A stretch of 52,496 bases of DNA. Source: a virus. Lineage: Duplodnaviria; Caudoviricetes. Made by a program: the position numbers and the translations under genes. The stretch spans positions 1 through 52,496 of the IMG/VR virus record IMGVR_UViG_3300028045_000022, one strand, 5' to 3'. The notes beneath the pieces were generated by a model, which made no database searches, was not told where the DNA came from, and worked only from the letters and a program-made list of their open reading frames with translations. Positions 36,501 to 52,496 of the stretch are shown here, piece after piece. How positions within the stretch are numbered: position 1 is the stretch's first letter; each line of letters opens with the position of its first letter.

Positions 36501-39500
36501 AGCGCCAGCCTCAACATAAACACCTGCGTTCGCACCATACGCTATTGTTACCCTGTCGTCAGCAGTTGCAAAGTTCCCTGCAGTCAATACTCCTGCTACA
36601 TCTAAGTCGTCTGTAATATCAACATCGCCTTCAAACTTAGAATCACCAACAACATGAAAATCAGTATCAGGTGTGATATTGTGTACACCCACTCTATCGG
36701 TGGTATTGCGAATCGTTATTGCTCGCTCTCCTGTGCTTGAATATAAATTAGTATAATCTGCCCCTCTTTGTAATAGTGAGGCACCCGAACCATCATTTAG
36801 CCTTACACTTGTTTGGTTAATTAATAATGCATTATTACCACCTAAGTCAACTTGAAGATATTCAGCACCTGTAGTACCATTAAAGTTCATATTTGCAGAG
36901 CCAGTACCATCACCTGTTAAAATTATATTTGGACCATTGTTATCTTTTCTTATTGTGTTAGCCTCAACTGTATTGGCTGTTGCAATACCTGTAACCGTTA
37001 GGCTGCCATCAACATCTCTTGTACCATCAGCCAATAAATATTGTGTATGGTCATCGTCGTCTAAACCTGTTAATGCTCCATGATCTACAATACTACCAGC
37101 GACAGCAGTTCCAATAGATGATGTTCTCCAATCAATAATCATAGCTGCACCTTCAACTTGCTCATAATCCCAAGTGTTATTACCACCTCGAACAATTGCT
37201 GTTGCAAGTGCTTTATATTCAGGAAAAGTTAATCCTGTTGTAGTTATTGTATTTATTTCACTAGCAGCAGCTTCTCTAGCAGCATTTCTAGCAGTATATA
37301 AATTTTGACCAACTACTGTAAATATTTCCTTATTATTAAAATCTAAAGTACCAAAATAATGATATAGTACATAATTATTATTCGGTACATCCTTAAGTGG
37401 TTCTATCGCATCTGTAATATCATTATATTGTGGTTGACCGCCACCATCTATAGCTACACCTGAATCGAAGAAATCAGAATCCCATTCTGGTGTTACAGCA
37501 TCATATTCATACCATACTGATGATATTTGATTATTAGCAGCATTAGGAATGTCTGATATATTCCATCTAATATCTTCGTCCCAAATGAGACCACCACCAA
37601 TACTAATTTCTTTAGTATTATTTACGGGAACTACTAACAACCCCTCATTACCATATCTAGTACCAGTTGCTAAATGATTATATAAATGTGTTTCCCAATT
37701 CATTAATCCGTGAAATTCAAACGATTCTTTCATTGCTGCATCTCTAGCTTTATTCCACACTATTTCAGCTACAAATACATTATCTCTAATTATTGTATAA
37801 ACATTAACTGTATTAGCTGCTTCGACAGTAAGTGTACCTTCAGCATCTGAGAAATAAATCCAGTAAGATTTAGCAGTTGTTGGTATATCTACTGTTATAG
37901 CGTCAGTAGTTTTATTCATTACTTTTTCCGCACCTCTATAATAATACTCATATGTCGAATCAATAGCGTCTATAGTAAAAGAACCAATACCACCAGTACC
38001 ACCAGTTGGATCAAATGACATAGAAACTTTATCTTGTTGCCATTCTCCATTTGCTAGAGATTCAGTATTATATCCATTATTTGTTACTGCACCTTCAGCG
38101 TTAATCGCAAGTTCATCAATAGCGTCTTGTATATTGCTAGAACTTAAACTAGATGTGAAATTCTCATATGTAACTTCATTACCAGCTATATAACCTGATG
38201 ACCAAACTACACCATTTGATCTCATATATAATCCACTAATAGTAGCTGTTAGATTATTATCTACATCGTGCAATTCATATAATTCAAAACCATTTTGCGG
38301 ATTAACAAAAATAGCACCATTACCATTACTTTCAATAACAATAGTTCCAACTATAGAACCGTGTGCTGGTGAATCTGGTTGTGTAGTTTGCCATTCCCCT
38401 GATGTAACTGATGTCCACACTGTTGCACCAGCATCATCGCCACCCGTTACGTCCGTATTTAGATTACGAACAAGTCCAAACGTAGTAACCCAACCTTGAT
38501 CACCATCAGCAATAGCGTGAGTTGTCATACCTATAATATCTTGCGTTTCCTCAGAAGCAGCTGAAGTTAATTGTATTGTCGCTCTTTGTCCTTGTGAACC
38601 ATTAATATAAACAATTTTTCCATCACCGATATCAGATCCAGTATTATTTAATACTCTTACCCAATTTTCTTGACCAAGTTGTAATATCGAATCTGGTACA
38701 TCTGTTTGTAAATTTAATGTATGATCGTCAGAATTATACCAAACCGCGCCTTCTTCTGTAGGATCATCACCGCCAGATTGTTCGAAATGAACCCACTCTG
38801 CATGTAATCCGCTAACAGAACCTTGATACCAACGACTTGTCGCTTCATCACCAAATGATATGTTATCAGAAGTTGGTAAAATATAATTTCCAGATTCATA
38901 TATATTATTAAACGTTGGTATTTGTCCTGATAAAGTAATGATTTCACCATCAATATAATTCTTAGTAGCTAAGTCTGAATCTGCAACAGGATCTACTCCA
39001 CCAACTGGTCCAGTAAAAGGAATAGCGCCATCATCAGTTACATAATTACTTGGACCACCACAATTAGATTCATATCCAGTTCCAACAAAATACGCTTCGG
39101 TAATGGTAACGCCACTATTGTTATAATAACTATACATATTTATAGCGGTCTCAGCAGGAGAAAATGATCCAGACCTAACAAGTGTTTCTGTTAATACACC
39201 TTGTGTTACAGTTGTAGTCATTGTTAATTGACCTGGTGTATTAAAATCTAATTCAACTACAAAATCAGCAGGAACATTATTTACAAATGTAACAGAACCA
39301 TCAACTCTTGAACCGTTAAAATATGTAGCCAATACTCCACCTATTAATCCAGTTCTAGTATTCGATGTTAAAGAACCACCAATATTTAAAGAGTTTGCTC
39401 CACTATCGGGTTGTGCGTCAGGATCAGTCCATTTAATTCTAGCAAAGGTTAGGTCGTATACATCAACATTTGAACCATTCGCTCTAAATATAGAATACTG

Positions 39501-40700
39501 TCTATTAGAAGTAATACCTAAAGGATCTAAATCAACGGAACCGTCACCATTAAATGTGTAGTCAGTAGAAAATTTATAATCAAAATCGACAGATGTAAAA
39601 GCTGTAGCGCCATCTGCTGTCAGACCTCTTGAAAGATATGTTCCACTAATTGGACAATTAGCGTAACCATCACTAGTCGCAACATCAGCTTTTAATGCTA
39701 GTTCAGTTGTTATTTTATCTGCTGACCATAATATATCATCGTCTGTATTATCATCGTCAACTTCAAATCCTGAATCTGTTAAGTTACCATTAGAATTTAA
39801 TGCTGCTAGATTACCATCTGTAGCACCTGACACTTTATCTGCCTTGTCCTCTAATGCAGTATTGAAGTCTGTAGTAGTTACATATGTTTCTTCATTGCCT
39901 AAACAATCACTTTCAAAGTCCGTTCCTACAACATACAACTCATTAAATGTTATTCCATAGGCGTTATCTGCCTGATTATAAGCTATACCAATTGTGTTGT
40001 CACCTGATGTAGTTCCTGTGTGCTGAACTGTTTCTATTGTTGCACCTTGAGTTACTGTTACAGTTACAGTAGTAGTTGCACCGTCAATTACAACGTCTAC
40101 TTCCCAATCTGATGAATCAGGTTGAGCAAATACCGTAGTACCTTGCTTCAGGTTGCCATCGATATAAATGCTGATCTTATAGTTAGCCGAAGTTACCCAA
40201 TTAAACTCGCTTTGCCAATTCCAAGTAAGCTTAGACGGTCTAGTGCCATCAAACATCTGCTCTTTTGTATACTTCATGTGAAATGACTTTACTTTAGTCA
40301 TGTCTATGATGGAACCCTGAGAATAGAATTCTATATCATCGTTTGATGTTCCAGTAGGATCGAAGAACATAGAACCATCAACATTATAAACAAGATCTGA
40401 TACTGGATTGCCTAACCATTTGATGTCATCACTTGAAAACGCCGTTGCTCCACCTTCCGTCAGACCTCTCGCGAGATATGTTTCACCGATAGCACATGAA
40501 CCATAACCTTCCATAGTCGGTACATCAGCTTTAGTGGCTAATGCTTCTTGTACAGATAATCCTGTAACTATATCTGTTGCTAACGCTGTAGATATATTAT
40601 CTGATACACCACTAATTGGTAAACTTTCACCATCTATTGTGTCTCCTATTAGGAAACCATTTTTAATTTTAAATTCATTAGACATAATTTCACTCTCCAT
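33567..40700 (-). CDS. long mosaic tail fibre / receptor-binding protein
   Basis: 2,377 aa. Fibre motifs include DLATKNYID, GNVGIGTAIP, NLGIGTDTPSAELDV, DHGALTGLDDDDHTQY and repeated GDVDITDDLDVGG spacers, with the terminal GKTITVTNGLIT. Confidence 0.85.
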   Translation of the reverse strand: MESEIMSNEFKIKNGFLIGDTIDGESLPISGVSDNISTALATDIVTGLSVQEALATKADVPTMEGYGSCAIGETYLARGLTEGGATAFSSDDIKWLGNPVSDLVYNVDGSMFFDPTGTSNDDIEFYSQGSIIDMTKVKSFHMKYTKEQMFDGTRPSKLTWNWQSEFNWVTSANYKISIYIDGNLKQGTTVFAQPDSSDWEVDVVIDGATTTVTVTVTQGATIETVQHTGTTSGDNTIGIAYNQADNAYGITFNELYVVGTDFESDCLGNEETYVTTTDFNTALEDKADKVSGATDGNLAALNSNGNLTDSGFEVDDDNTDDDILWSADKITTELALKADVATSDGYANCPISGTYLSRGLTADGATAFTSVDFDYKFSTDYTFNGDGSVDLDPLGITSNRQYSIFRANGSNVDVYDLTFARIKWTDPDAQPDSGANSLNIGGSLTSNTRTGLIGGVLATYFNGSRVDGSVTFVNNVPADFVVELDFNTPGQLTMTTTVTQGVLTETLVRSGSFSPAETAINMYSYYNNSGVTITEAYFVGTGYESNCGGPSNYVTDDGAIPFTGPVGGVDPVADSDLATKNYIDGEIITLSGQIPTFNNIYESGNYILPTSDNISFGDEATSRWYQGSVSGLHAEWVHFEQSGGDDPTEEGAVWYNSDDHTLNLQTDVPDSILQLGQENWVRVLNNTGSDIGDGKIVYINGSQGQRATIQLTSAASEETQDIIGMTTHAIADGDQGWVTTFGLVRNLNTDVTGGDDAGATVWTSVTSGEWQTTQPDSPAHGSIVGTIVIESNGNGAIFVNPQNGFELYELHDVDNNLTATISGLYMRSNGVVWSSGYIAGNEVTYENFTSSLSSSNIQDAIDELAINAEGAVTNNGYNTESLANGEWQQDKVSMSFDPTGGTGGIGSFTIDAIDSTYEYYYRGAEKVMNKTTDAITVDIPTTAKSYWIYFSDAEGTLTVEAANTVNVYTIIRDNVFVAEIVWNKARDAAMKESFEFHGLMNWETHLYNHLATGTRYGNEGLLVVPVNNTKEISIGGGLIWDEDIRWNISDIPNAANNQISSVWYEYDAVTPEWDSDFFDSGVAIDGGGQPQYNDITDAIEPLKDVPNNNYVLYHYFGTLDFNNKEIFTVVGQNLYTARNAAREAAASEINTITTTGLTFPEYKALATAIVRGGNNTWDYEQVEGAAMIIDWRTSSIGTAVAGSIVDHGALTGLDDDDHTQYLLADGTRDVDGSLTVTGIATANTVEANTIRKDNNGPNIILTGDGTGSANMNFNGTTGAEYLQVDLGGNNALLINQTSVRLNDGSGASLLQRGADYTNLYSSTGERAITIRNTTDRVGVHNITPDTDFHVVGDSKFEGDVDITDDLDVAGVLTAGNFATADDRVTIAYGANAGVYVEAGASSVATLGLGDNVSSGKIAYDNATDSMAINTNDATRVTIDSTGDVDILRSLTVGGFFDLSGSVSVNDISTDTSFTTPTNTRLVTQSAIKSYVDSVNDSATFIDGTADEVQLKVQAHSTQTASNILEVESWNSTDLFTIDGAGNTEVFNDLTVDGEVIIGDGSSIGNPTGNAKVTLSSTGERVLIGTTTKSIEVSESYAAGINGNVFIDGRDDNVQLRVKGHSTQNQDILSVGDDGGNELFTVNNTGDVDISSDLDVGGRVVVGDGLGEANVAIESIVSNSGSNGSILALRNSAEAVDSANGVYLMTGTGALSNTNIHGIMQGVITQATPSALKGKLNFYVNGGDSLDIAMVMNDDKSIDMLGDADITNDLTVGGTLTVGDGVTASPAITIERKSGEASIAGATGKYLVMDSDAGTYINNYTASDVILGFGGGNVGIGTAIPDERLHVFSGSAGAIGASSVTDLVVENSSSTGLQFLSPSTSIQYMLFGDEASNTVGQITYNHNTDVMTFIANSNAGITIDNLGDVDILNGDLDVGGDADVGGVLTVGDATAAVINATCSNTNANSVLSLNTSNGATAGVMVAYGSASGAQSNDVSVKNTVTGGELDFWTQGTKKLSIESGPAGGVNVTNNLTVGGATIASSYPLIVKNNSVGAPALALERTASGTLFGYMFENTDTSGLLALKGTSTADTVNINGNGISYFNGGYIGVGLADPAQPLHVHNASSNTNLIKITNTDSGTDLYSGLGIGLSGPTTAYVLNYEDGDMFFGTGSVIGMVLDANNNLGIGTDTPSAELDVVGDVEITDDLDVGGDLAVGGDISGKDLTILPNTGNGWDASAVANGTLQIVNGSSIYRVPSILAKGSGISDIGLLIGAVTNNGMVDSDMIFTVREDDDSAGGKEHTTLAGKVAYSFRDYAKLLFEIDRDGDTRVYKDLAVSGDTDSATYSVGGTAGASGSFTSNDGKTITVTNGLITAMLSELG

Positions 40701-40741: not shown

Positions 40742-42700
40742 TTATAATGCTGGTAATACATATGCACCAGTACTATTAGACCAAAATGTTCCATTAAACC
40801 AAATTGGGTATCCTAAACTTGTATTAAAATATTGTGTACCTGTTGTCACTACACCAGAAGGTCTATCTGCACTTAAACCATAAGATACCTGCGTATCAAC
40901 ATAATTCTTAGTAGCAAAATCATCTGAATCTACTGGATCGTCACCTTTTACTCTGGTTTCAAAATGAAAAGTATCGTTATCACCATTAAATTCAAGTTTT
41001 CTAGTTATTCCTGATGCTGTCATTGCTAAATATGGATTAAATAAACCTGTCGGATATGCAGGAATTGTATTTTCTGTTTCATCATTAACATTTAATGTTA
41101 TTCTATTATATCCACTAGGTGTTATATAATCGACTGTTCCAACTGAACCATTCGAATCTGTACCAATCGTTAATATATCTCTATATAATCTAGCCATTAC
41201 TCTATCAGCTATTTTTGTATCATCGTTAAGTATTAAACCACTACGAGTATATTGTGCCGTTGGTACACTACCTGATCCTTCAATTGAATCTATATAATCA
41301 TATAAGAAATAACCAGCACTTCCAGTACTTGATATATTTTTACCATTAGAGTAAGTATAGAATGCACCTGGATTAATTAAAAATGATGCGCCAGTTTCTA
41401 ATGGTGCGGTAGTAGTTCCATCTATATCACCAACTGCTAATTGATAATATCCAGAATGTGTATATATAATATTACTATATGAATACCAATAGTCAGAAGA
41501 ACTCATATTAGCATCAACATAACCTTTTGTTGTTAATACTTGATCAGATGCTGCATCAATCATATCATTAGTTGCTTCATCACTAAATGCTAAACCACTA
41601 TTTGTAACTCTAAAAGCATTTAATAATCCACTACTACTTGTACCAATACCAATCTCAAATATTGATTCTTCTTGTGGGTCATTATATTTACCTATTGCTG
41701 TCATATAATCATTATATGCTACTGTAAAATATCCACCAGCATGAGAATAATCGCCATTGGCTATAGAAAAATGACCTTCAGCATGTGCCGAATTAGCATT
41801 AGCCTGAGTACCATTACCTTCAGCATGTGAATAATTACCACTAGCTCTAGTACCAGCACCTTCAGCGTGTGAAGAATTTCCAATTGATGTTGTTGCTTCA
41901 CCTTCAGCATGAGAATATATTCCACTTGTAATAGTATATCCACCTTCAGCATGTGACGAAGCACCTATAGCTTGAGTATTTTCACCTTCAGCATGTGAAG
42001 CATAACCATATGCTTTAGTAATTACACCTTCAGCATGTGCACCTGGTCCACCATCAGTATAAGCCGTAGTGTGAAATCCTTCTGCGTGTCCTGCATAAAT
42101 TCCAGATACTACTGAACTGTCACCTTCAGCGTGAGAAGCAATAGCATATGCTATAGTTCTCATACCTTCAACATGTGAATAATCACCATAAGCAATTGTG
42201 TTATATCCTTCCGCATGCGACGCATCGCCACTAGCCACAGAATAATGACCTTCAGTATGTGAAGCATAACCATATGCTTTAGTTCTCATACCAGTAGCAT
42301 GACTAGTTGATCCTAATGCTCGAGATCCATCACCAAATGCGTGAGCATAATGACCACTAGCATATGTATTTTGACCTGTAGTAAATGAATAAACACCTTC
42401 TGCTCCACCAAGATTACCAGATGTTGTATTTGATAAATCTACAGCGTCTAAACCAATAGTAGTTTTATAAGTTTTATCCTGCGATGATATAGCATAACCA
42501 TTATCGAATTGTATTAATTCTCCACTACCTGACGGATTCTCATATATATAATGTAATACGCCACTTTCATCTTTATATCGTAATGCGTGATTAGAAGGAT
42601 CTTCAGTTGACCATGTTGGCTCTCTATTATACTGAACAGCATCTATTTGTGAATTAGTAGCTTCTAACATCAGATATATACCACTTATATATTGAGCCAT
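40742..42700 (-). CDS. tail spike/fibre with YadA-head-like (SHAEG) repeats
   Basis: About 15 tandem ~14-aa repeats of the form xSHAEGxxTxAxG, followed by FEIGIGT...NAFRV and DFATKNYVD. Confidence 0.8.
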   Translation of the reverse strand: MAQYISGIYLMLEATNSQIDAVQYNREPTWSTEDPSNHALRYKDESGVLHYIYENPSGSGELIQFDNGYAISSQDKTYKTTIGLDAVDLSNTTSGNLGGAEGVYSFTTGQNTYASGHYAHAFGDGSRALGSTSHATGMRTKAYGYASHTEGHYSVASGDASHAEGYNTIAYGDYSHVEGMRTIAYAIASHAEGDSSVVSGIYAGHAEGFHTTAYTDGGPGAHAEGVITKAYGYASHAEGENTQAIGASSHAEGGYTITSGIYSHAEGEATTSIGNSSHAEGAGTRASGNYSHAEGNGTQANANSAHAEGHFSIANGDYSHAGGYFTVAYNDYMTAIGKYNDPQEESIFEIGIGTSSSGLLNAFRVTNSGLAFSDEATNDMIDAASDQVLTTKGYVDANMSSSDYWYSYSNIIYTHSGYYQLAVGDIDGTTTAPLETGASFLINPGAFYTYSNGKNISSTGSAGYFLYDYIDSIEGSGSVPTAQYTRSGLILNDDTKIADRVMARLYRDILTIGTDSNGSVGTVDYITPSGYNRITLNVNDETENTIPAYPTGLFNPYLAMTASGITRKLEFNGDNDTFHFETRVKGDDPVDSDDFATKNYVDTQVSYGLSADRPSGVVTTGTQYFNTSLGYPIWFNGTFWSNSTGAYVLPAL

Positions 42701-43846: not shown

Positions 43847-44095
43847 CTATTTCTCCTGTATATCTACATTCAATTCATTATTTATTACTTCTAACTCAAA
43901 TATTACACCATCTAAATCTATATCATCTTTCAAATTACCTATCAAATCTATGATCTCGTCAGAGGCCATTTGAGACCCTAACATATTTAATGACTCCTCT
44001 AGTATCCCTATTGCACTTTCTATATGCTCTGATGCACTCTCTGGCTCATCTGATGCGTTGTATAATTCATTTAATGCTCTATCTAAACTTTTCAT
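43847..44095 (-). CDS. small acidic helical protein
   Basis: ATG 44095 follows GGAGGA; TATACTAT at 44158-44165. Confidence 0.6.
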   Translation of the reverse strand: MKSLDRALNELYNASDEPESASEHIESAIGILEESLNMLGSQMASDEIIDLIGNLKDDIDLDGVIFELEVINNELNVDIQEK

Positions 44096-44233: not shown

Positions 44234-44389
44234 TTAAAATTTTATTTTTAATCCTGAAATTAGAGATTTAATGCGATGTCTAATTAGTGGACCAACTGTA
44301 ACCATATCATCTTGAGTTAAAACTGTACCTTTAATAGTATTACAAAACCAACAACATGTACAAATTTTATAATCTTTATCAAATTTCAT
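44234..44389 (-). CDS. 51-aa Cys-rich peptide
   Basis: Manual translation MKFDKDYKICTCCWFCNTIKG...; AAGGA RBS. Confidence 0.5.
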   Translation of the reverse strand: MKFDKDYKICTCCWFCNTIKGTVLTQDDMVTVGPLIRHRIKSLISGLKIKF

Positions 44390-44583
44390 AATTAGTCCTT
44401 TATATAGATTTTGTTAATTTTTTTTGTGAGACGGGAATATTAACGTTTGTATATATACATATATATGTAGCCCACCCCCTTTTATATAATATAGTACAAA
44501 ACAGGGATCCTCGCAAGTATTTTATATAAAATTTCATCATCTGCAACTGCTAGGTTATTATATTATGATCAAAGTAGTTTCGA

Positions 44584-44612
44584 TTGATTCGAGCCTACCC
44601 CCTGTTTATAAT
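44584..44612 (+). promoter_or_regulatory. sigma70/sigmaA-type early promoter
   Basis: TTGATT (44584-44589), 17-nt spacer, TATAAT (44607-44612); predicted +1 at about 44619. Confidence 0.7.
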
Positions 44613-44619
44613 AATAACT

Positions 44620-44747
44620 CTGTGGAAAGTACGGAAAACACAGTATAAACCTTGTACATAACAGGATAAAGCAGTTCCTGAACATATCGTTAAACACTGC
44701 GTAATACCTAGTACAGCTAGGAGAGAGGTGGCTATCATGGCTATCGT
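44620..44747 (+). ncRNA. structured leader, copy 1 (full length)
   Basis: Four hairpins with compensatory changes relative to copy 3; invariant GTGGAAAGTACGGAAAACAC. Confidence 0.7.
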
Positions 44748-45009
44748 AAGAAGAGATGAGCTTGTTGTTGGTGATTGTTTCCATGAACTTAAGGGTAACT
44801 ATGACGAATCATTCAAGTACGTAGGTATTGTATCACTACCATGTGGTAAGTGCTATAGATATGAGCGTACAAACAAAATGACAGGTGTTAAAGACATCAG
44901 TCATACACTGTGTGATTGGGGTATATTTAAGGTCGATGTGTACTATAGCCCTGAAGTTGAAAAGGAAATAGAAACATGTGGCCTATGGAATGAGGAGTAC
45001 GGTGCATAG
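44737..45009 (+). CDS. hypothetical early protein
   Basis: ATG 44737 follows GAGGTGG (MAIVRRDEL...). Confidence 0.7.
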   Translation: MAIVRRDELVVGDCFHELKGNYDESFKYVGIVSLPCGKCYRYERTNKMTGVKDISHTLCDWGIFKVDVYYSPEVEKEIETCGLWNEEYGA

Positions 45010-45033
45010 GTAATATGTGTCATACAACATAAT

Positions 45034-45104
45034 TCGAAACTAGTCGTCCTAATAGGGTGGCTAGTCTGTAGGGGATAAGCTTCCTGCACTGATGAGATAG
45101 CTTA
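45034..45104 (+). ncRNA. type II hammerhead ribozyme
   Basis: Core GAAA (45036-45039), GUC cleavage triplet (45064-45066) and CUGAUGA (45089-45095). Stem III is 12 bp, stem I 7 bp and stem II 2 bp; loop I UAAGCU pairs with 3' AGCUUA. Confidence 0.92.
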
Positions 45105-45140
45105 CGTGGAAAGTACGGAAAACACGTTAAAACTTGTACA
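45104..45140 (+). repeat. structured leader, copy 2 (truncated)
   Basis: ACGTGGAAAGTACGGAAAACACGTTAAAACTTGTACA is identical to 45445-45481. Confidence 0.85.
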
Positions 45141-45181
45141 TTTCGAATTATTAATTTAAAGCTTTTTGAAAGGAGCTTATT

Positions 45182-45367
45182 ATGAAAGTTTATAAAACTA
45201 TTGGTGCAAAATGGCGTTCAGAAAAAATTGTTAATATTAACACTAAAAATGAAGAAGATAAGAGGTATATGATTAAGCTTGCGACTAAGGTTGTAGGTGC
45301 TGGGCTTGTATCTGGTGTTATATACATCGGATATTGTTTAGTATGGATAGCTGCTGGCTTAAACTAG
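45182..45367 (+). CDS. small membrane protein
   Basis: AAGGAG RBS; C-terminal hydrophobic helix. Confidence 0.7.
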   Translation: MKVYKTIGAKWRSEKIVNINTKNEEDKRYMIKLATKVVGAGLVSGVIYIGYCLVWIAAGLN

Positions 45368-45383
45368 TAGATATTCATATTTA

Positions 45384-45437
45384 GAACCCAAATGTGCCTT
45401 CTTGATAGTTCGCTATTGAGAGGGCCATTTTAGGTTT
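45384..45437 (+). promoter_or_regulatory. long hairpin (candidate RNase III site)
   Basis: GCCTTCTTGATAG-TTCG-CTATTGAGAGGGC (13 bp with G-U pairs), extended by AAATG/CATTT and AACC/GGTT. Confidence 0.55.
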
Positions 45438-45444
45438 TATATCT

Positions 45445-45570
45445 ACGTGGAAAGTACGGAAAACACGTTAAAACTTGTACACAACAGGTTACAGTAGTGC
45501 CTGAGCATTTCGCTAAATACTACACAGATTCTAGTACAACTAGAGGAAAGGTGGCTATCATGGCTATCGT
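45445..45570 (+). ncRNA. structured leader, copy 3 (full length)
   Basis: Homologous to 44620-44747 with compensatory base changes. Confidence 0.7.
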
Positions 45571-47740
45571 TAAAACTTTCGCAGCACTCAAAAACATCGT
45601 AACATTTACTAACAACGTTGACATTAAACGTATCAGTAAAGAACAAGAAATCATAAACACTATGTCGAAGGAACAGTACTTCGGCCTAAGCGAACAGGAG
45701 TTTAAAACAATGACAAAGTCTGACTGGTACAAGAATGAAGAAACAAGATTGGATGCTTGGTTTAACCGAAAGGAAAGAGGTCTAGATAATGGACCAATCA
45801 TAAACGTTGATATTATAAAAGAGGCCAGAGCAAAGATGCATGCTGGTATAACTGAAGCTGATAACTTAAGAATTGCACTTAACCGTGCTGAGACAAGGAA
45901 TAACAATATGAAAAAGAACGAACTTCGTGCAGAGAAACGTGCTGCTAAGAAACAAGGGACTGAGATGTCTCTAACTATACATGGGTCTAGTTTTAAAGAT
46001 GAAATAAAGTCTAAATCTAACAAAGGAGTTAGTATGAGAAAGATAAGTATGTCCAAAGAGGCATGGGTTGAGACAATGGTTGCTGAAAATGCGGATTATA
46101 GGTATGGTCCATCAAGATTCTGCAATTGTTTTGATCATAAGGCAATATTAAAGGAGGCTATCAGTGAGCTTAAGGATGAGATCGATTGTCTTGATTCTAT
46201 CACAGATGAAGATAGAATATTATATCTTGAGTCTCAGGTTTTGGACTTGGAAGATATAGTGTATGCACCTCATATAAAGACGGAGTTGAGTACAGATGGA
46301 GCATTTGTATGTCCTGTTTGTAATGAATCATACAAGCACGAAGACTTAAGATTCGATTACATCGACGAAGATGAAATCAGAATTGATACAGAATATGCAG
46401 ATAGACGTAATGCGATTCTAGAGTCATTTAAATCTCCAATGCATAACCCAGAAATGAGTAATGAAATACCTGTTGTGATCGATAAGTGTAAGAAGGTTAA
46501 CCTTATTGGTAAGAACAAAGACACAATAGTAGAAAATGTAAAAGCGCTATTTAATACAGATAGTAATGGATCTCTATCATATGAGGATTATAATAAGTTT
46601 GAAGTTATTGAGAGTCTGATAATGACACCTGATGAACTTATTGCATCTGAAACTAGTAGTGATGGACTTGGTAATGAGTGTATGTCATATGAAGCGTTTA
46701 TGGGTTATGATTCTAATGATATGGAACGTAATGATGGTGATGATACAAATGATACACATGATGAATTGGATATAGCTGGGGCTGTAGATAAGATCTTGCC
46801 TTGGATTGGTGAATCTGTAGATATTAGAGGTATGCTCGACTTCAATGTAAGAAATTCTTTCGAGACAACACATGGTCATAAGTTTATACTAGGTAAGACT
46901 GAAGTTAAAGGTATGTTCGCTGACTACTATTTCACAAATCACACAATACTTAGAGAAAGGATTCAAAAGAAGGCAGAAGCTGCTAAAGCTGGCATAAATA
47001 AAGTGAATCGTATGATAGATATAGAACATGCAGATGGTAGTATTACCGAAGAGCGTAATATATCAGATGATGCATATAATACGTTAATTGAACGTCTAAC
47101 TGATGAATATTACTATTGGATGGCTTGGACTGAAGATGAAGAATGGAATGGTTATAAGAAGGTTCAAAATGGTAGAAATAAATCTATAGATCATGTTAGA
47201 GCTGGTGGTACACTTAAATACTACGTGTATATCAATAGAGATGGTAAGATATGTTTCGGATCTCATCCAGATACATATACAATGACGAGTGCAAAATATA
47301 TCGAACACGGCGATACATACATGTTAGCTGAGGATGACTATGTTGCAACTGCATATAAAGTATTTACTAAGATAGCACCAAGAATAGTTTGGAACTATAA
47401 CACATATAAAGGATATAACTTTGTAAATATAGGTATTAAAGGTAAGGATGGAAAAGTACATATGGGTTATGGTGGATTCGAGAATGGTCTTAAAGATGTG
47501 CTTCTAGATATTTGTGGTCAACCTAGGATGGCTGGAATAAACACATATCGTCAGTTTAATAACTTAGTTGAAACAGATGGTATGACTAAATTTGATTCAT
47601 CTAATGAGTTAATATCAAAACTAGCAGAAATGTTAAAGATCGATATTGTTCAATCAATTAAGAAACATAGATCAAGTAACAAATGGTTAGCTGATATTGA
47701 TGTTAAAGATGATAAAACTTATCGCTTTGAACTCAAATAA
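45560..47740 (+). CDS. large hypothetical early protein (726 aa) with an acidic middle and a CPVC motif
   Basis: ATG 45560 shares its RBS and start context with 44737; in-frame internal AAGGAG plus ATG at 46034. Confidence 0.75.
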   Translation: MAIVKTFAALKNIVTFTNNVDIKRISKEQEIINTMSKEQYFGLSEQEFKTMTKSDWYKNEETRLDAWFNRKERGLDNGPIINVDIIKEARAKMHAGITEADNLRIALNRAETRNNNMKKNELRAEKRAAKKQGTEMSLTIHGSSFKDEIKSKSNKGVSMRKISMSKEAWVETMVAENADYRYGPSRFCNCFDHKAILKEAISELKDEIDCLDSITDEDRILYLESQVLDLEDIVYAPHIKTELSTDGAFVCPVCNESYKHEDLRFDYIDEDEIRIDTEYADRRNAILESFKSPMHNPEMSNEIPVVIDKCKKVNLIGKNKDTIVENVKALFNTDSNGSLSYEDYNKFEVIESLIMTPDELIASETSSDGLGNECMSYEAFMGYDSNDMERNDGDDTNDTHDELDIAGAVDKILPWIGESVDIRGMLDFNVRNSFETTHGHKFILGKTEVKGMFADYYFTNHTILRERIQKKAEAAKAGINKVNRMIDIEHADGSITEERNISDDAYNTLIERLTDEYYYWMAWTEDEEWNGYKKVQNGRNKSIDHVRAGGTLKYYVYINRDGKICFGSHPDTYTMTSAKYIEHGDTYMLAEDDYVATAYKVFTKIAPRIVWNYNTYKGYNFVNIGIKGKDGKVHMGYGGFENGLKDVLLDICGQPRMAGINTYRQFNNLVETDGMTKFDSSNELISKLAEMLKIDIVQSIKKHRSSNKWLADIDVKDDKTYRFELK

Positions 47741-47743
47741 TAT

Positions 47744-47766
47744 TAACTGGGGCTTCGGCCCCTTTT
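47744..47766 (+). terminator. terminator-like hairpin (repeated at 48111)
   Basis: TAACT-GGGGC-TTCG-GCCCC-TTTT. Confidence 0.75.
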
Positions 47767-47803
47767 CTAAGGTATTTAATTAATTTTTAACAAAGGATAT
47801 ATC

Positions 47804-48109
47804 ATGATGAAGATTACAGGAAGTTACAGAATTTGGAAAAAAGGTGGGAACTTTAATAACCAGTTTCTACAAATGTATCTAATCATTGATGGTAAGAGAT
47901 TTGCCTTTAGTGGTTATGTTGATGAGAAGGATATGAGTCAAGTTAATATCTTATTAGCTGCTCATTGGGGTAATCTTAAGGTAACTAAGGATCTTAAGAA
48001 TGACAGAAAATCTGAACATGATGAGTATGTAGATTGGTGTTATGCTAGAGAGCTACACTTGAGTACATATATTGTACCATTTCTAATGCAGATTAAATAT
48101 ATAAAATAA
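47804..48109 (+). CDS. hypothetical protein
   Basis: AAGGA RBS; ORF track. Confidence 0.7.
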   Translation: MMKITGSYRIWKKGGNFNNQFLQMYLIIDGKRFAFSGYVDEKDMSQVNILLAAHWGNLKVTKDLKNDRKSEHDEYVDWCYARELHLSTYIVPFLMQIKYIK

Positions 48110-48110
48110 T

Positions 48111-48133
48111 TAACTGGGGCTACGGCCCATTTT
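48111..48133 (+). terminator. terminator-like hairpin, second copy
   Basis: TAACTG-GGGC-TACG-GCCC-ATTTT. Confidence 0.6.
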
Positions 48134-48148
48134 CTAAAGGATATTATT

Positions 48149-48454
48149 ATGAAAAAGAATATAAAAGTAAGAGAAATTAGTGTAACGATGATGGATAATG
48201 GTAAATATAAGCATGCACTTAGAGTATTTGCAGAATACACATTAATGATTGACATGAAGGTATATATTGAATATAACATAAACACTAATGTGTATAATGT
48301 ATACGTTGGATATATGGCTGCGCATAAAGTAATACTTGAAAACTGTTCAAAAGTAGAAGCTTGGGATAGATTATTAAGTATAAAACATTCAGAAGTATTA
48401 GATATTATTAAAGACATTCGTCGTATGGAATATCTAGCATCTCTTGAATCATAA
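48149..48454 (+). CDS. hypothetical protein
   Basis: AAGGA RBS; ORF track. Confidence 0.7.
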   Translation: MKKNIKVREISVTMMDNGKYKHALRVFAEYTLMIDMKVYIEYNINTNVYNVYVGYMAAHKVILENCSKVEAWDRLLSIKHSEVLDIIKDIRRMEYLASLES

Positions 48455-48459
48455 GGGAT

Positions 48460-48640
48460 TGTTCCTCCGCACACCTCCGCACCCAAAAGCATGCGTCTCG
48501 TCGTTCCTCCTCACCTTACTTTGGTGGTCGCTTCGCTCCATGGGGTTATAGCGGCACTCGTTCCTCGGCCTTATGGACCACTCGTTCCTCGTTCGGATTT
48601 TGGGTGGTCGGTAACATCTAACTGTCACCTCCGCACACAA
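48460..48640. other. GC-rich branched non-coding element
   Basis: CACCCAAAA/TTTTGGGTG closing stem; CTCGTTCCTCG twice; CCTCCGCAC three times. Confidence 0.55.
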
Positions 48641-48764
48641 CAACAGTGGACACGCTCAGTATTATCTGTAACATATATCGTTTGTGTACGCAGGAGTTAA
48701 AAATGTATAGAATGTCTTATTCAGTGTCTATCAAATGGTTGGTAGGCGCAAACAAGGGGTTGTT

Positions 48765-49073
48765 ATGAGAATAACAGTCGGTAGAGTTGGTACCAACAAG
48801 TTTGGTGTAACCAATATCAAGGTTGATAGAACTACCATCCTTGGTAACCCTTTTCCGATGAAGAATCAGTCTGACAATGAACGCACTCGCGTATGTTTAG
48901 AATATGTTAAGTATTTCGTACGCATGGTTAATTCAGCTGGTCCTTTTCGGGACGAAGTTGGGAGAATATATAAGCTTGCTAAGAGTGGTAAGTCTATTAA
49001 TCTCCAATGTCATTGTGCACCTAAGCAGTGTCACGCAGATACAATCAATAAATTTATAGAAAAATATTTATAG
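48765..49073 (+). CDS. DUF4326-like protein
   Basis: VDRTTILGNPF...LQCHCAPKQCHADTI matches the DUF4326 signature (GNPF; LxCxCxPxxCHxD). Confidence 0.8.
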   Translation: MRITVGRVGTNKFGVTNIKVDRTTILGNPFPMKNQSDNERTRVCLEYVKYFVRMVNSAGPFRDEVGRIYKLAKSGKSINLQCHCAPKQCHADTINKFIEKYL

Positions 49074-49118
49074 AATGTCTTAATTGATGTTCTATTTAAC
49101 TTTTTTAAAGGAGTTCAC

Positions 49119-49313
49119 ATGGGTGAATTTATGAAAGCTTTTAAGAATGACTTAGCAATAAGTTTATTCGGTAGGAGCCAAGATGAAGCACAGGATAAAG
49201 CAATTTGTGTTTCTTGTGGCGGAGATGCAAGCGAATTCGTTGACGAAGTAAGTCAGCACGAATACTCCATTTCAGGAATGTGTCAAAAGTGTCAAGATGA
49301 ATTTTTTGGCTAA
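49119..49313 (+). CDS. small zinc-binding protein
   Basis: CVSCG...EYSISGMCQKCQDEFFG; AAGGAG RBS. Confidence 0.75.
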   Translation: MGEFMKAFKNDLAISLFGRSQDEAQDKAICVSCGGDASEFVDEVSQHEYSISGMCQKCQDEFFG

Positions 49314-49392
49314 ATAAAATTAGAATGTCTTATTCAGTGTCTCTTAGGTGAGGCACTACTATAAGATTTTTTAACATTTTCAAGGATTTATT

Positions 49393-49545
49393 ATGAAAAA
49401 TTTAGTTGATCTTTTTAGCTCAGACGTGTCACATTTGTTACATTTAGGTTTTAGGCCTGAAGATTTCAATCCAAGACCCGTAGATAAAGTTGAGTTTGGA
49501 TACAAGGAAGATTTCTTAGATACAGAGTTTGATGACTTTGACTAA
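49393..49545 (+). CDS. 50-aa acidic peptide
   Basis: Manual translation MKNLVDLFSSDVSHLLHLGFRPEDFNPRPVDKVEFGYKEDFLDTEFDDFD; AAGGA RBS. Confidence 0.65.
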   Translation: MKNLVDLFSSDVSHLLHLGFRPEDFNPRPVDKVEFGYKEDFLDTEFDDFD

Positions 49546-49599
49546 GAAAAATAAATAGAATGTCTTAATTGATGTTATTCAAAGGAGTTCATCACCAAA

Positions 49600-50160
49600 T
49601 AGCCTTATATCTCTGACTGGTGAATCAGAGGGAAATTATTAGATAAGAGCAAACTAATGATTAAATATGAGGCCACCGCTCGTTTTTAACTAAAGGAGTA
49701 GCAGAAATGCTATAGTTTCAGACCTGAGTCATGTCACAAAACTGACTTATTACGGACTATATGGGGGTAGGATCTCTTCACTTATGAACAGTAATGTTCT
49801 CGGTGAGTAGTCTGGGGGTTTGGTACTGACCTAATTAGTAAAGTACTACTGGTTTTTAATGATTGCACCAGTTATCCTAAAACAATCATAATTCGTATCT
49901 AAAATCTGGGAAGGCTTTGCGGAGCTGGAGTAAAAGATACGTGCATTTTTGTAGTAGATCTTAATAACAACACTACATTGATGTACTTAAATATTAAAGT
50001 TGTTATAGGAGTTGTGTACACTTCTTTGATGGTATAAAACCAAAGTGCATTTATGCGTAATAATTTGATATTGTGTCTAGTAACGCGCCAATATCATCTT
50101 ACTGAAAGACTACAGCGTGTTAAAGGAGTTGGGTACACTTCTAATAAAAACAAGTGCCCA
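49600..50160 (+). ncRNA. ORF-free array of structured RNA modules (three-way junctions plus six H-type pseudoknots)
   Basis: No ORF of 60 aa or more. Pairings are listed in the findings; non-Watson-Crick stem positions are G-U on the + strand. Confidence 0.75.
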
Positions 50161-50230
50161 TTATATTTTATAAGATATACTAAAATGAATAGTGCGTCTT
50201 ATTAAGTATAATTTTTAACTAGGAGGATAT

Positions 50231-50512
50231 ATGAGAGATCATTTATCAAAATTGAACTTCAAATATGACGACAAAGGTCAACAAGCTATTCTTTTCTTCC
50301 TTAATGGATATGGTGTATCTGTTGTATGGGGAGAAGGTAGGTACGGTGATGGTGTTGATTCTTGGGAATTGGCTGTACTCAAAGGTGAAATGGATAATTG
50401 GGAACTATGTTATGACACTGATGTAACTTGTGATGTTATGGGTTGGTTAGATCGCAGTGAGGTTAACAAGGCAATCGAAGATGTTTACAAGTTAGAATTT
50501 GTAAATGAATAG
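50231..50512 (+). CDS. hypothetical phage protein
   Basis: AGGAGG RBS; FLNGYGVSVV...WELAVL...DVMGWL pattern. Confidence 0.75.
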   Translation: MRDHLSKLNFKYDDKGQQAILFFLNGYGVSVVWGEGRYGDGVDSWELAVLKGEMDNWELCYDTDVTCDVMGWLDRSEVNKAIEDVYKLEFVNE

Positions 50513-50677
50513 AGTGTCTTAATTATTGATTCTTGATTAAGGAGGAACCACAATTGAGGGTTTACTAAGAGAGTTAGGTATCTACTGTAAAAGATATTAA
50601 TTCCATCTAAGAAGAGAGGGATGGTATAACAAATACTTCTCAAACTAATTTTTTTAAAACAATATCTAGGAGATATT

Positions 50678-51103
50678 ATGAATAACACAGCTGACAACAC
50701 CAGGACTTCAAACACTATCAGTGACCTTTTCGATGCAGGAAATCCAGTAGCTAGAGAACAGATAAAAACCAGAACTGTAAGAAAAAGCGAGAAGGATCTC
50801 ATAATCCAACAAATTAAGAATGAAGTCAATGTTATTAAAGTTAACAGAGATAACTTACTTAAAACTGCTAACGGTGATAAAATGCTTACACACCAGATAA
50901 ATAGTGAAGCGAAGACACGTATCCTTGCATTGCAGATTAAATTTCAACCTGCCATTAAAAATGCCAGCATTGACGTTGAAGCAGTTGGGGAAGCATTATT
51001 TTCTATGGGTGGTGAAAAAGTAGGTGCATTTGTCGCAACTCCAGTTAAAGCAGCTAAAGGGTTTTTTGGTTCTCTTATGAGAAGAGCAGGTATAATCAAA
51101 TAA
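50678..51103 (+). CDS. hypothetical protein
   Basis: AGGAG RBS; ORF track. Confidence 0.7.
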   Translation: MNNTADNTRTSNTISDLFDAGNPVAREQIKTRTVRKSEKDLIIQQIKNEVNVIKVNRDNLLKTANGDKMLTHQINSEAKTRILALQIKFQPAIKNASIDVEAVGEALFSMGGEKVGAFVATPVKAAKGFFGSLMRRAGIIK

Positions 51104-51127
51104 TAAGGTTTCTTCGAAATTCCCCAG

Positions 51128-51160
51128 GTCATCTGCCGAATGGTGGGTGGCCGCTTTATT
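51128..51160 (+). terminator. terminator-like hairpin
   Basis: GGTCATCTGCC-GAAT-GGTGGGTGGCC followed by GCTTTATT. Confidence 0.45.
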
Positions 51161-51194
51161 AACTAATTTAATAATAATTATCAAAGGATATGTC

Positions 51195-51605
51195 ATGTTT
51201 AATATTAAGAATGCTGTAGAGAAAAAAGTAATCGGTAACAAAATTAGGACCTTTATCGAAGATCTTGATACTCAATCTATACTTGAAATTGGTGAAATTA
51301 TCGGAGACACATTTAAAAAGATATTAATATCTGAATCTTTAATGTTAACTGATATGGTTAAAGACAACAAAGAACAATTAATTAAACTAGCTGAAGATAA
51401 TTCTAATCTTATTATATCCTTAAATAATTCTTGGGATATGTGGACCGAAGCTAAAACTAATAAAAAGAATCAAGATAATGTCAAATCTATTAAATCTAAT
51501 ATTAATAGAAGTTGGAATGAGTTTCTTGAAAGAGTAGATTGCATAAACGAAGATAGTAACAAGGCTGTTGCTAACAATAAGTATATCGCTAAATTTAATA
51601 AGTAA
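51195..51605 (+). CDS. hypothetical protein
   Basis: ATG 51195 follows AAGGA. Confidence 0.7.
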   Translation: MFNIKNAVEKKVIGNKIRTFIEDLDTQSILEIGEIIGDTFKKILISESLMLTDMVKDNKEQLIKLAEDNSNLIISLNNSWDMWTEAKTNKKNQDNVKSIKSNINRSWNEFLERVDCINEDSNKAVANNKYIAKFNK

Positions 51606-51607
51606 TC

Positions 51608-51958
51608 ATGGAAAGCATATTAATTTTCGGTATCTTAATGGCGCTTGCTGCTGGATTATTTTGGGTAATCGAGGCTCAACCGTATGTCAGAAAATTAAAA
51701 GAATTAAAGAAAGAACACGCTAATGCTACCGCTAACGTTTCAACTATACGTAAATATGCTAGTAATACAGCATTTACTATTAAAACTGGAGCACATATAT
51801 ATCTATTGTTACCTTTAGGTATAGATCTATTTATTACAAGTTCATTAGCATCAATGTTAGGTTTTGGTGGAATGGTCGGTGGTATCATCGGATTATTCAT
51901 CTCTAATATCATTTCATTATTTATTATAGTTGTAGCTGCAAGTATGAATGGAAAGTAG
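51608..51958 (+). CDS. membrane protein (about 3 TM segments)
   Basis: Hydrophobic segments at both the N- and C-termini. Confidence 0.7.
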   Translation: MESILIFGILMALAAGLFWVIEAQPYVRKLKELKKEHANATANVSTIRKYASNTAFTIKTGAHIYLLLPLGIDLFITSSLASMLGFGGMVGGIIGLFISNIISLFIIVVAASMNGK

Positions 51959-51964
51959 GACATT

Positions 51965-52195
51965 ATGGTTAAAGATTTAACAATCGCTGTCGCTGTTAGG
52001 ACCACAGAGCATGGAAACTCAGGGTATATATTATATATGCCCAATAGTTCAGGTAACGGTCGTTATGGATGGTATACAACGTCACATGATACTGATCATA
52101 TGATTAGACAAGAACTTCAAAATGATGCTGAGGATTATGGAAGATCATTAGTTATCTGTACACCTGATAGACAAGCATATTATGGAATTAAATAA
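51965..52195 (+). CDS. hypothetical protein
   Basis: AGGA RBS; ORF track. Confidence 0.65.
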   Translation: MVKDLTIAVAVRTTEHGNSGYILYMPNSSGNGRYGWYTTSHDTDHMIRQELQNDAEDYGRSLVICTPDRQAYYGIK

Positions 52196-52237
52196 TACCA
52201 ACAAACAGGTTATGACTAAATAACGACTTTGTGGTAA

Positions 52238-52265
52238 GGCCCCCCGAGCGGATGCGAGGGGGGCT
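52238..52265. other. GC-rich hairpin closing the plus-strand block
   Basis: GGCCCCCC-GAGCGGATGCGA-GGGGGGCT. Confidence 0.5.
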
Positions 52266-52496
52266 ATTCATTCTATTTTTTCTAATTCTCAATTACTACA
52301 AATAAACATCAGTTCACTCTAGGGCCAAAGAAATATATTTCACTATATTTCAAGTACTTAGAGAAAACCTTGTTTTCCGTTCACTATCCCTATATTTTCA
52401 CTAAAATATACGTAAGTTTTACTAAAATAACGCAAATGCATTGAATTTGGTTAAAATTTTGCTAAAATACGCGCGTAAGAGGAGTTTGAAAGTACC

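Follow-up and report, generated by a model that had tools for sequence, protein, structure and literature searches.

A repeated leader module beside a promoter-like site, a type II hammerhead and a long hairpin in a marine myophage gene block

IMG/VR virus record IMGVR_UViG_3300028045_000022 was analysed over its full length (52,496 bp, an estimated ~23% of a genome; hereafter the window); its source is an uncultured marine myophage. At the head of its plus-strand gene block, three consecutive genes were found to share a 38-nt module, which stands once after a promoter-like site, once at the end of a type II hammerhead ribozyme motif and once behind a long hairpin. Three of these features, namely the repeats, the hammerhead and the hairpin, individually stand above chance expectation; the promoter motif by itself does not. 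Tentatively, we interpret the block as an operon that is cut up at the RNA level and whose cistrons, each bearing the same module early in the presumed 5' untranslated region (UTR), share a leader that acts as RNA. An initial annotation had proposed that one transcript is cut by the ribozyme and perhaps by ribonuclease III (RNase III), and such an integrated RNA-processing design appears a reasonable synthesis. It finds partial support in the hammerhead between genes 1 and 2, in the lack of promoters matching at least 9/12 hexamer positions at copies 2 and 3, and in the covariation of the leader; the part assigned to the long hairpin is less secure, this hairpin being terminator-like as well.

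Intergenic hammerheads of phages have been on record since 2011, and their effect on the flanking messages is largely obscure. Here the ribozyme has a legible context: one leader is reused after a promoter, a ribozyme and a long hairpin, and a built-in complement could switch the ribozyme off. Should the RNA ends map as predicted, the locus would provide a compact natural model of how a phage separates and standardises cistrons at the RNA level, and a natural counterpart to synthetic ribozyme insulators. Should they map otherwise, it would be one more type II hammerhead beside shuffled UTR cassettes.

The leader module and its fold

A repeat search returned the 38-nt unit as direct repeats in three copies, located as follows with respect to genes 1, 2 and 3:

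44619-44736, plus strand: leader copy 1; module at 44619-44656, H1 stem formed by 44620-44624 with 44639-44643, then a structured 5' UTR with more hairpins
44727-44734 with 44738-44745, plus strand: hairpin of the copy 1 UTR, pairing the Shine-Dalgarno (SD) region with codons 1-3
44737-45009, plus strand: gene 1, 90 amino acids, several Cys, no family match
45103-45140, plus strand: leader copy 2, a short form consisting of the 38-nt module alone; H1 stem formed by 45104-45108 with 45123-45127
45182-45367, plus strand: gene 2, 61 amino acids, hydrophobic C-terminal segment; AAGGAG 7 nt before the ATG
45444-45559, plus strand: leader copy 3; module at 45444-45481, followed by a structured 5' UTR whose homology to the gene 1 UTR extends over the first 5 codons
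45560-47740, plus strand: gene 3, 726 amino acids, no relatives detected

The module is built of a 5-bp stem (H1), a conserved 14-nt purine-rich loop and then CUUGUACA. A 20-nt core is identical in the three copies and occurs three times on the plus strand and not once on the minus strand of the whole 52.5-kb record, with up to 3 mismatches allowed. All copies are in sense orientation, one in each 5' UTR of the consecutive genes 1, 2 and 3. Copies 2 and 3 are identical at 38/38 nucleotides with unrelated flanks on either side, and copy 1 shares 71% identity with the others in an ungapped comparison. Between copies 1 and 3 the homology runs on beyond the module, at 77% over 116 nt, through the SD region and the first 5 codons; the proteins of genes 1 and 3 both begin with MAIV, their remainders being unrelated on inspection.

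Differences between the copies preserve pairing. H1 has the arms CUGUG/CACAG in copy 1, and copies 2 and 3 have ACGUG/CACGU, so that two positions are changed on both sides with 5/5 pairs kept. A consensus fold of the UTRs of genes 1 and 3 obtained with RNAalifold contains 31 pairs, four of them with compensatory changes, one with a one-sided change and none broken. When the columns of this two-sequence alignment were shuffled, at least 4 compensatory pairs arose in 2/300 cases and the consensus energy was reached in 0/300. The covariation in these two UTRs points to an element that works at the RNA level. In genes 1 and 3 the module would head a UTR of ~120 nt with a conserved fold, the last hairpin of which pairs GGUGGCUA with UGGCUAUC and would occlude both the SD sequence and the AUG; such burial offers a structural explanation for the conservation of the first codons. 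Most likely, then, the 38-nt module acts as RNA, and it could serve the three messages as a shared recognition site or structure through which their stability or translation is controlled alike. A further contact is conceivable, since the loop motif GUACGG can pair with a downstream UUGUAC in 3/3 copies (-5.5 kcal/mol); another hairpin competes with this pairing.

The repeated, structured leader is real, and it is an orphan. In metagenome contigs the exact 20-mer of the leader had a single match, a chance one within a bacterial MutS-like reading frame. A 15-mer of the leader had 100 matches in viral contigs, none of them with similar flanks or a downstream TTGTAC, and the best reached 18/38 positions; an 18-mer of the SD/start hairpin had 0 matches. 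Rfam scans with lax E-values (E up to 10) gave nothing relevant around any copy of the 38-nt leader, and lax scans likewise gave nothing relevant for other ribozyme or riboswitch classes at the leader or the long hairpin. A peptide-coding role for the leader was rejected, the copies carrying stop codons in differing frames. The 38-nt unitig common to copies 2 and 3 had a word depth of 31.6 as compared to 11.4-14.5 in the flanking contigs, which weakly suggests that one more identical copy exists beyond this record.

The hammerhead between genes 1 and 2

The following elements were assigned around the start of copy 2:

45032-45106, plus strand: type II hammerhead ribozyme (RF02276), Rfam 30.9 bits, E 6.5e-5, model positions 1-66/66
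45036-45039 (GAAA) and 45089-45095 (CUGAUGA), plus strand: hammerhead core; C3-A9 correspond to CUGAUGA and G12-A14 to GAA at 45036-45038
45039-45065, plus strand: stem III, 12 bp; A45039-U45065 is the A15.1-U16.1 pair
45067-45088, plus strand: stem I, 8 bp
C45035-G45096 and U45034-A45097, plus strand: stem II, open, two Watson-Crick pairs
45076-45081 with 45099-45104, plus strand: pseudoknot of loop I (UAAGCU) with the tail (AGCUUA), 6 Watson-Crick pairs
C45066 (position 17)/U45067, plus strand: predicted cleavage site
45029-45039, plus strand: 5' arm (AUAAUUCGAAA) of a perfect 11-nt helix, covering the stem II strand and GAAA
45141-45151, plus strand: 3' arm of the same helix, directly after copy 2

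Every position of the hammerhead core is canonical, with C17 conforming to H (not G). The pseudoknot tail begins one nucleotide past stem II, and its AGC aligns with the AGC in the tail of the RF02276 model; a pseudoknot of 6 pairs was matched in 51/5000 shuffles and at 80/5000 random places with equal geometry. The RF02276 match was obtained only by a lax-filter scan of 45010-45160 alone, and its E-value rises to ~0.02 when extrapolated by length to the full window and to every family. A descriptor of our own (GAAA, a hairpin, U followed by H, a hairpin, CUGANGA) returned one strong site in the window, with stems of 12 and 8 bp, which is this hammerhead. In 200 dinucleotide shuffles the descriptor gave any match at all in 20/200, and stems of at least 8 and 6 bp in 0/200. 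A weak second match to the descriptor, at 43955-44020 of the minus strand (4-bp and 5-bp stems, CUGACGA, within a reading frame of 101 amino acids), is probably due to chance because matches of such strength occur in 20/200 shuffles.

Judged by its sequence and predicted structure, the hammerhead is genuine. As the type is described by Perreault et al. (2011, PMC3088659), stem II of type II hammerheads is open and may be as short as 2 bp, and a pseudoknot of at least 4 pairs joins loop I to the 3' tail. The present motif shares with these ribozymes of bacteria, phages and marine metagenomes the full core, the loop-closed stems I and III, the open 2-bp stem II, a pseudoknot of 6 pairs in the consensus register and an intergenic position in a phage gene block; in that description, hammerheads flank genes in prophages, and haloviruses HF1 and HF2 have one shortly before an early gene (PMC3088659). 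The motif adds a new representative to a familiar ribozyme class, in surroundings typical of it. It differs in scoring 30.9 bits where 37 is the RF02276 gathering score, in having a long stem III (12 bp) and a tail that runs into a repeated leader hairpin, and in being accompanied by an 11-nt complement able to mask GAAA.

A relative was found in the one public sequencing run that carries the sequence: another low-depth contig, of 310 nt, matches 45064-45100 (stem I and core) at 30/37 nt. Its flank CGAAAC-GCCC-ATCA-GGGC provides another stem III with the pairing kept, and the hammerhead is followed by a ribosome-binding site (RBS) and an ATG, without the leader module. The contig represents a different genome of this sample, with a type II hammerhead related to the present one.

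Since genes 1 and 2 are separated by a canonical type II hammerhead, the natural reading is that the ribozyme would cut a polycistronic RNA. Self-cleavage would take place between C45066 and U45067. By established hammerhead chemistry, the cut would leave a 2',3'-cyclic phosphate on the gene 1 RNA, which would close with the 12-bp hairpin of stem III, and a 5'-OH on the gene 2 RNA, which would open with the 8-bp hairpin of stem I. The initial annotation rightly saw copy 2 abut the last base of the hammerhead; in fact, the last 2 nt of the pseudoknot tail are the first 2 nt of copy 2. Its statement that each mRNA is headed by the same H1 element does not hold literally, because 36 nt of ribozyme, comprising the stem I hairpin, CUGAUGA, the stem II strand and the pseudoknot tail, would precede copy 2 on the RNA downstream of the cut.

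A hammerhead followed by a fixed hairpin and then by an RBS is also the layout of synthetic ribozyme insulators such as RiboJ, which standardise the 5' end of a cistron. The phage arrangement resembles them in this order of elements and differs in being natural and in having the fixed element also without a ribozyme, at two other genes.

Perfect 11-nt inverted repeats with 40-150 nt between the arms occur at only 4 loci in the whole window, including the helix of 45029-45039 with 45141-45151. The minimum-energy fold of 45020-45160 takes this helix (-35.6 kcal/mol); with the core and the pseudoknot strands kept free the fold has -29.6 kcal/mol, to which the pseudoknot duplex adds ~-4.7, giving about -34.3 kcal/mol. 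By these figures the masked and the active states are nearly isoenergetic, and the helix is possibly a ribozyme-off conformation, as modelled. Assignment of 45145-45151 as the true stem II strand was rejected, as it would leave 49 nt between A9 and position 10.1.

The promoter-like site and the long hairpin

The outer copies of the module are preceded by signals of two other kinds, and two clear terminators lie downstream:

44584-44612, plus strand: sigma-70-like promoter, TTGATT (44584-44589), 17-nt spacer, TATAAT (44607-44612), 10/12 matches
45382-45439, plus strand: long irregular hairpin with UUCG loop, 25 pairs (7, 5 and 13, with a bulge and an internal loop between), -27.6 kcal/mol
47749-47768, plus strand: compact GC-rich intrinsic terminator, GGGGC-TTCG-GCCCC then TTTTCT (GGGGCTTCGGCCCCTTTTCT)
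48116-48135, plus strand: near-copy of the terminator at 47749 (GGGGCTACGGCCCATTTTCT)

Transcription of the operon would begin at the first of these sites. The hexamers that had been proposed ahead of copy 1 are present, and the copy starts 7 nt past the -10 hexamer, within the criteria used for the start (5-9 nt) and the hexamer spacing (16-18 nt). In 44300-52496, with both strands considered, no promoter-like site scores higher than this pair, which shares the top rank; it lies in the sole intergenic space in need of a plus-strand promoter, where the minus-strand structural genes and the plus-strand block diverge. Its function as a promoter is deduced from this position, because promoter-like sites are not more numerous than in shuffles; a promoter at 44584-44612 is plausible. 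Directly upstream of copies 2 and 3 no sigma-70-like promoter with at least 9/12 matches was found, so the independent promoters that would have contradicted a common transcript were not encountered there.

The second boundary would be formed by the long hairpin. It folds with a z of -6.65, a stability attained by 0/200 shuffles. The hairpin and its place before copy 3 were as the initial annotation described them; its extent and the distance to the copy needed correction, from 45384-45437 with a gap of about 7 nt to 45382-45439 with a gap of 4 nt. With 25 pairs it exceeds the length criterion of ~22 bp for an RNase III substrate, 22 bp (about two helical turns) being the idealised substrate as described in PMC3867540. 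According to the same source, helix irregularities can direct single-strand RNase III cuts that leave stabilising 3' hairpins, as at five sites of the T7 early region. The present hairpin resembles those five sites of T7 early mRNA in being longer than 22 bp, in its irregularities (a bulge and an internal loop) and in standing between cistrons just ahead of the next leader. Unlike the T7 early region, the block has one such hairpin, a candidate site only, and its 3' side carries a U-rich terminator-like tail.

A terminator scan picked the inner stem at 45396-45425 (13 pairs, 5 of them GC) with the tail CATTTTAGGT, in which the U tract is interrupted and starts 2 nt after the stem. By eye, the 3' side of the long hairpin (GGGCCATTTTAGG) is similar to the two clear terminators of this phage. 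Given both the scan and this likeness, the hairpin may make the 3' end of gene 2, not (or besides) the 5' end of gene 3, and this third "processing" signal is equally readable as a terminator. We regard it as a candidate for either or both of two roles, that of an RNase III site and that of a leaky intrinsic terminator which also stabilises the 3' end of gene 2; on read-through RNA it would possibly serve as the RNase III site.

The two clear terminators belong to near-identical cassettes (TTAACTGGGGC..GGCCC.TTTTCT) at 47743-47768 and 48110-48135, after genes 3 and 4. The next RBS follows directly after each of them, with no promoter-like site in between.

Alternative explanations and genomic setting

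Several results weigh against an operon that is cut up and governed at the RNA level. As single sequences the leaders fold no better than shuffles (z -0.1 to -1.0), and a hairpin with a GAAAG loop (H1') competes with H1 and is favoured in copy 1. The covariation statistics come from two or three paralogous copies of one genome, and the 38/38 identity of copies 2 and 3, bounded abruptly by unrelated flanks, suggests a recent recombination event more than prolonged selection. Relatives of the leader were not found, its exact 20-mer having 0 matches in viral contigs. No RNA run is among the public runs carrying the sequence; the sole public run with it, possibly the one from which the record was derived, contains DNA and bears the label seawater metagenome, and its contigs showed no variants. 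The hammerhead falls short of the gathering score and needed lax filters to be found: Rfam gave none at the gathering threshold over the whole window and none in E-value mode over 1301 nt, and the RF02276 profile search of the record itself misses it. The minimum-energy fold adopts the masking helix, and with a stem II of 2 bp and a helix able to sequester GAAA cleavage may be inefficient. Finally, promoter-like sites in 44300-52496 number 31 as compared to a shuffle mean of 38.6, and 10 as compared to 11.9 in another scan.

It is also conceivable, though unlikely, that the module acts as DNA, as a phage-specific promoter or operator. The genes would be transcribed singly, and the hammerhead, the long hairpin and the GC-rich hairpins at 47749 and 48116 would be the 3' ends of the upstream genes. 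Such a role would agree with the perfect 20-nt core in three copies oriented with the genes, with the presence of an element capable of forming a 3' end after each of genes 1-3, and with the terminator-like character of the long hairpin in the scan. Moreover, another repeated promoter-like cassette, TAGAATGTCTTA, occurs in 4 copies in the same region, so repeated intergenic control sequences are in use in this phage. Compensatory changes in the H1 arms and in the UTR downstream are, however, what would be expected of RNA and not of a duplex read by a protein. Neither inside copies 2 and 3 nor in the sequence directly ahead of them is there a sigma-70-like hexamer pair, and the scanned proteins of the window included no recognisable RNA polymerase or sigma factor, in a record estimated to cover ~23% of a genome. 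Sharing of bases between the hammerhead pseudoknot tail and the module also places the module on the same RNA as the hammerhead.

The TAGAATGTCTTA cassette consists of an A/T-rich run, TAGAATGTCTTA itself and conserved downstream bases, and stands four times before small plus-strand genes. Its sequence resembles a promoter whose -10 element is TAGAAT. Its copies and the repeats holding them are:

48708-48719, in the repeat 48699-48735
49071-49082, in the repeat 49062-49091
49321-49332, in the repeat 49312-49348
49556-49567, in the repeat 49547-49583

Modular shuffling comparable to that of the PeSL cassettes of T4-like phages, for which there is precedent (PMC4122927; see also PMC2839356), is an alternative to which we likewise give little credence. 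In this case a cassette of UTR and gene start would have been duplicated, or have served as a recombination joint, as genes 1 and 2 were gained, and the nearness of the copies to the promoter, ribozyme and hairpin would reflect tight spacers and no coordinated design. The abrupt divergence on both sides of the identical copies 2 and 3 is what shuffling would leave, as is a UTR common to copies 1 and 3 through the first 5 codons of proteins whose remaining sequences show no relation on inspection; ORFans such as these genes are typical of hyperplastic regions, and Logan contigs break exactly at the repeats. As in PeSL cassettes, short conserved intergenic repeats precede unrelated, variable small genes of a myophage, with sharp homology boundaries. 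PeSLs are composites of a terminator and an early promoter, whereas no hexamer pair of at least 9/12 is in or next to copies 2 and 3, H1 has no U tract after it, and the module, which is no terminator, continues into an RNA fold supported by covariation. That covariation in UTRs 1 and 3 indicates continuing selection on structure, and the order of signal, module and RBS is kept in 3/3 cases. Shuffling accounts for the origin of the copies, not for their function, and is compatible with an operon cut up at the RNA level.

A processive antitermination RNA of the nut or put type, tethered to the elongating polymerase and re-installed after each severing point, is very improbable. Terminator-like hairpins do follow genes 2, 3 and 4 with no promoter of at least 9/12 before the next gene, and each copy lies directly downstream of a start or a likely cut, and nut and put RNAs must stay tethered to the polymerase. 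Nevertheless, lax scans of the three copies showed no likeness in sequence or structure to any Rfam family, no N-like protein was identified, no module copy follows the terminators at 47749 and 48116, and the H1' pentaloop GAAAG does not fit the boxB loop type, which is G...A. A broader version, in which the module is a cis-RNA tethered to the polymerase or to the first ribosome, is renewed after the start, the hammerhead cut and the hairpin cut, and is combined with an 11-nt helix that makes the ribozyme cut conditional, is similarly remote; if true, it would describe a natural operon of alternating cut and re-arm RNA modules.

The setting of the locus is that of a divergent junction:

1-44389, minus strand: myophage structural genes (tail sheath, portal, large terminase, major capsid protein)
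from ~44737 onward, plus strand: block of small genes, function not assigned

With the structural genes on the minus strand and the small genes on the plus strand, the leader array sits at the head of the plus-strand block. No loci related to genes 1 and 3 were found in viral contigs, and no homologue of gene 3 was found among 7999 scored candidates. Three relatives recognised by their portal proteins (62-70% identity; L004-L006) contain no homologous region, only short chance matches; RF02276 had no match in them either, which is uninformative as the same search missed the hammerhead of the window itself.

Two further stretches contain repeats. At 48455-48700, a GC-rich stretch in an AT-rich phage contains only short open reading frames (ORFs; 35-69 amino acids) and no annotated gene. 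It has internal repeats, CTCGTTCCTCG twice plus CCTCCGCACAC-like motifs, and could be a structured RNA; a lax Rfam scan gave nothing relevant for it. The ~650 nt of 49585-50230 hold two short ORFs only (40 and 50 amino acids), with no convincing Rfam match, and GGAGTTGNGTACACTTCT occurs there twice, at 50008 and 50125.

On the minus strand, the gene of a 2377-amino-acid protein (33567-40700) has nucleotide repeats inside it; identification of this protein as a virion RNA polymerase was rejected, as there was no match in Pfam, PHROG or PDB sequences. Another minus-strand gene, encoding 656 amino acids, contains a repeat with a 42-nt period in ten copies (41695-42345), and its product, which matches a YadA-head repeat and PHROG families including one of virion structural proteins, may be a fibre or adhesin.

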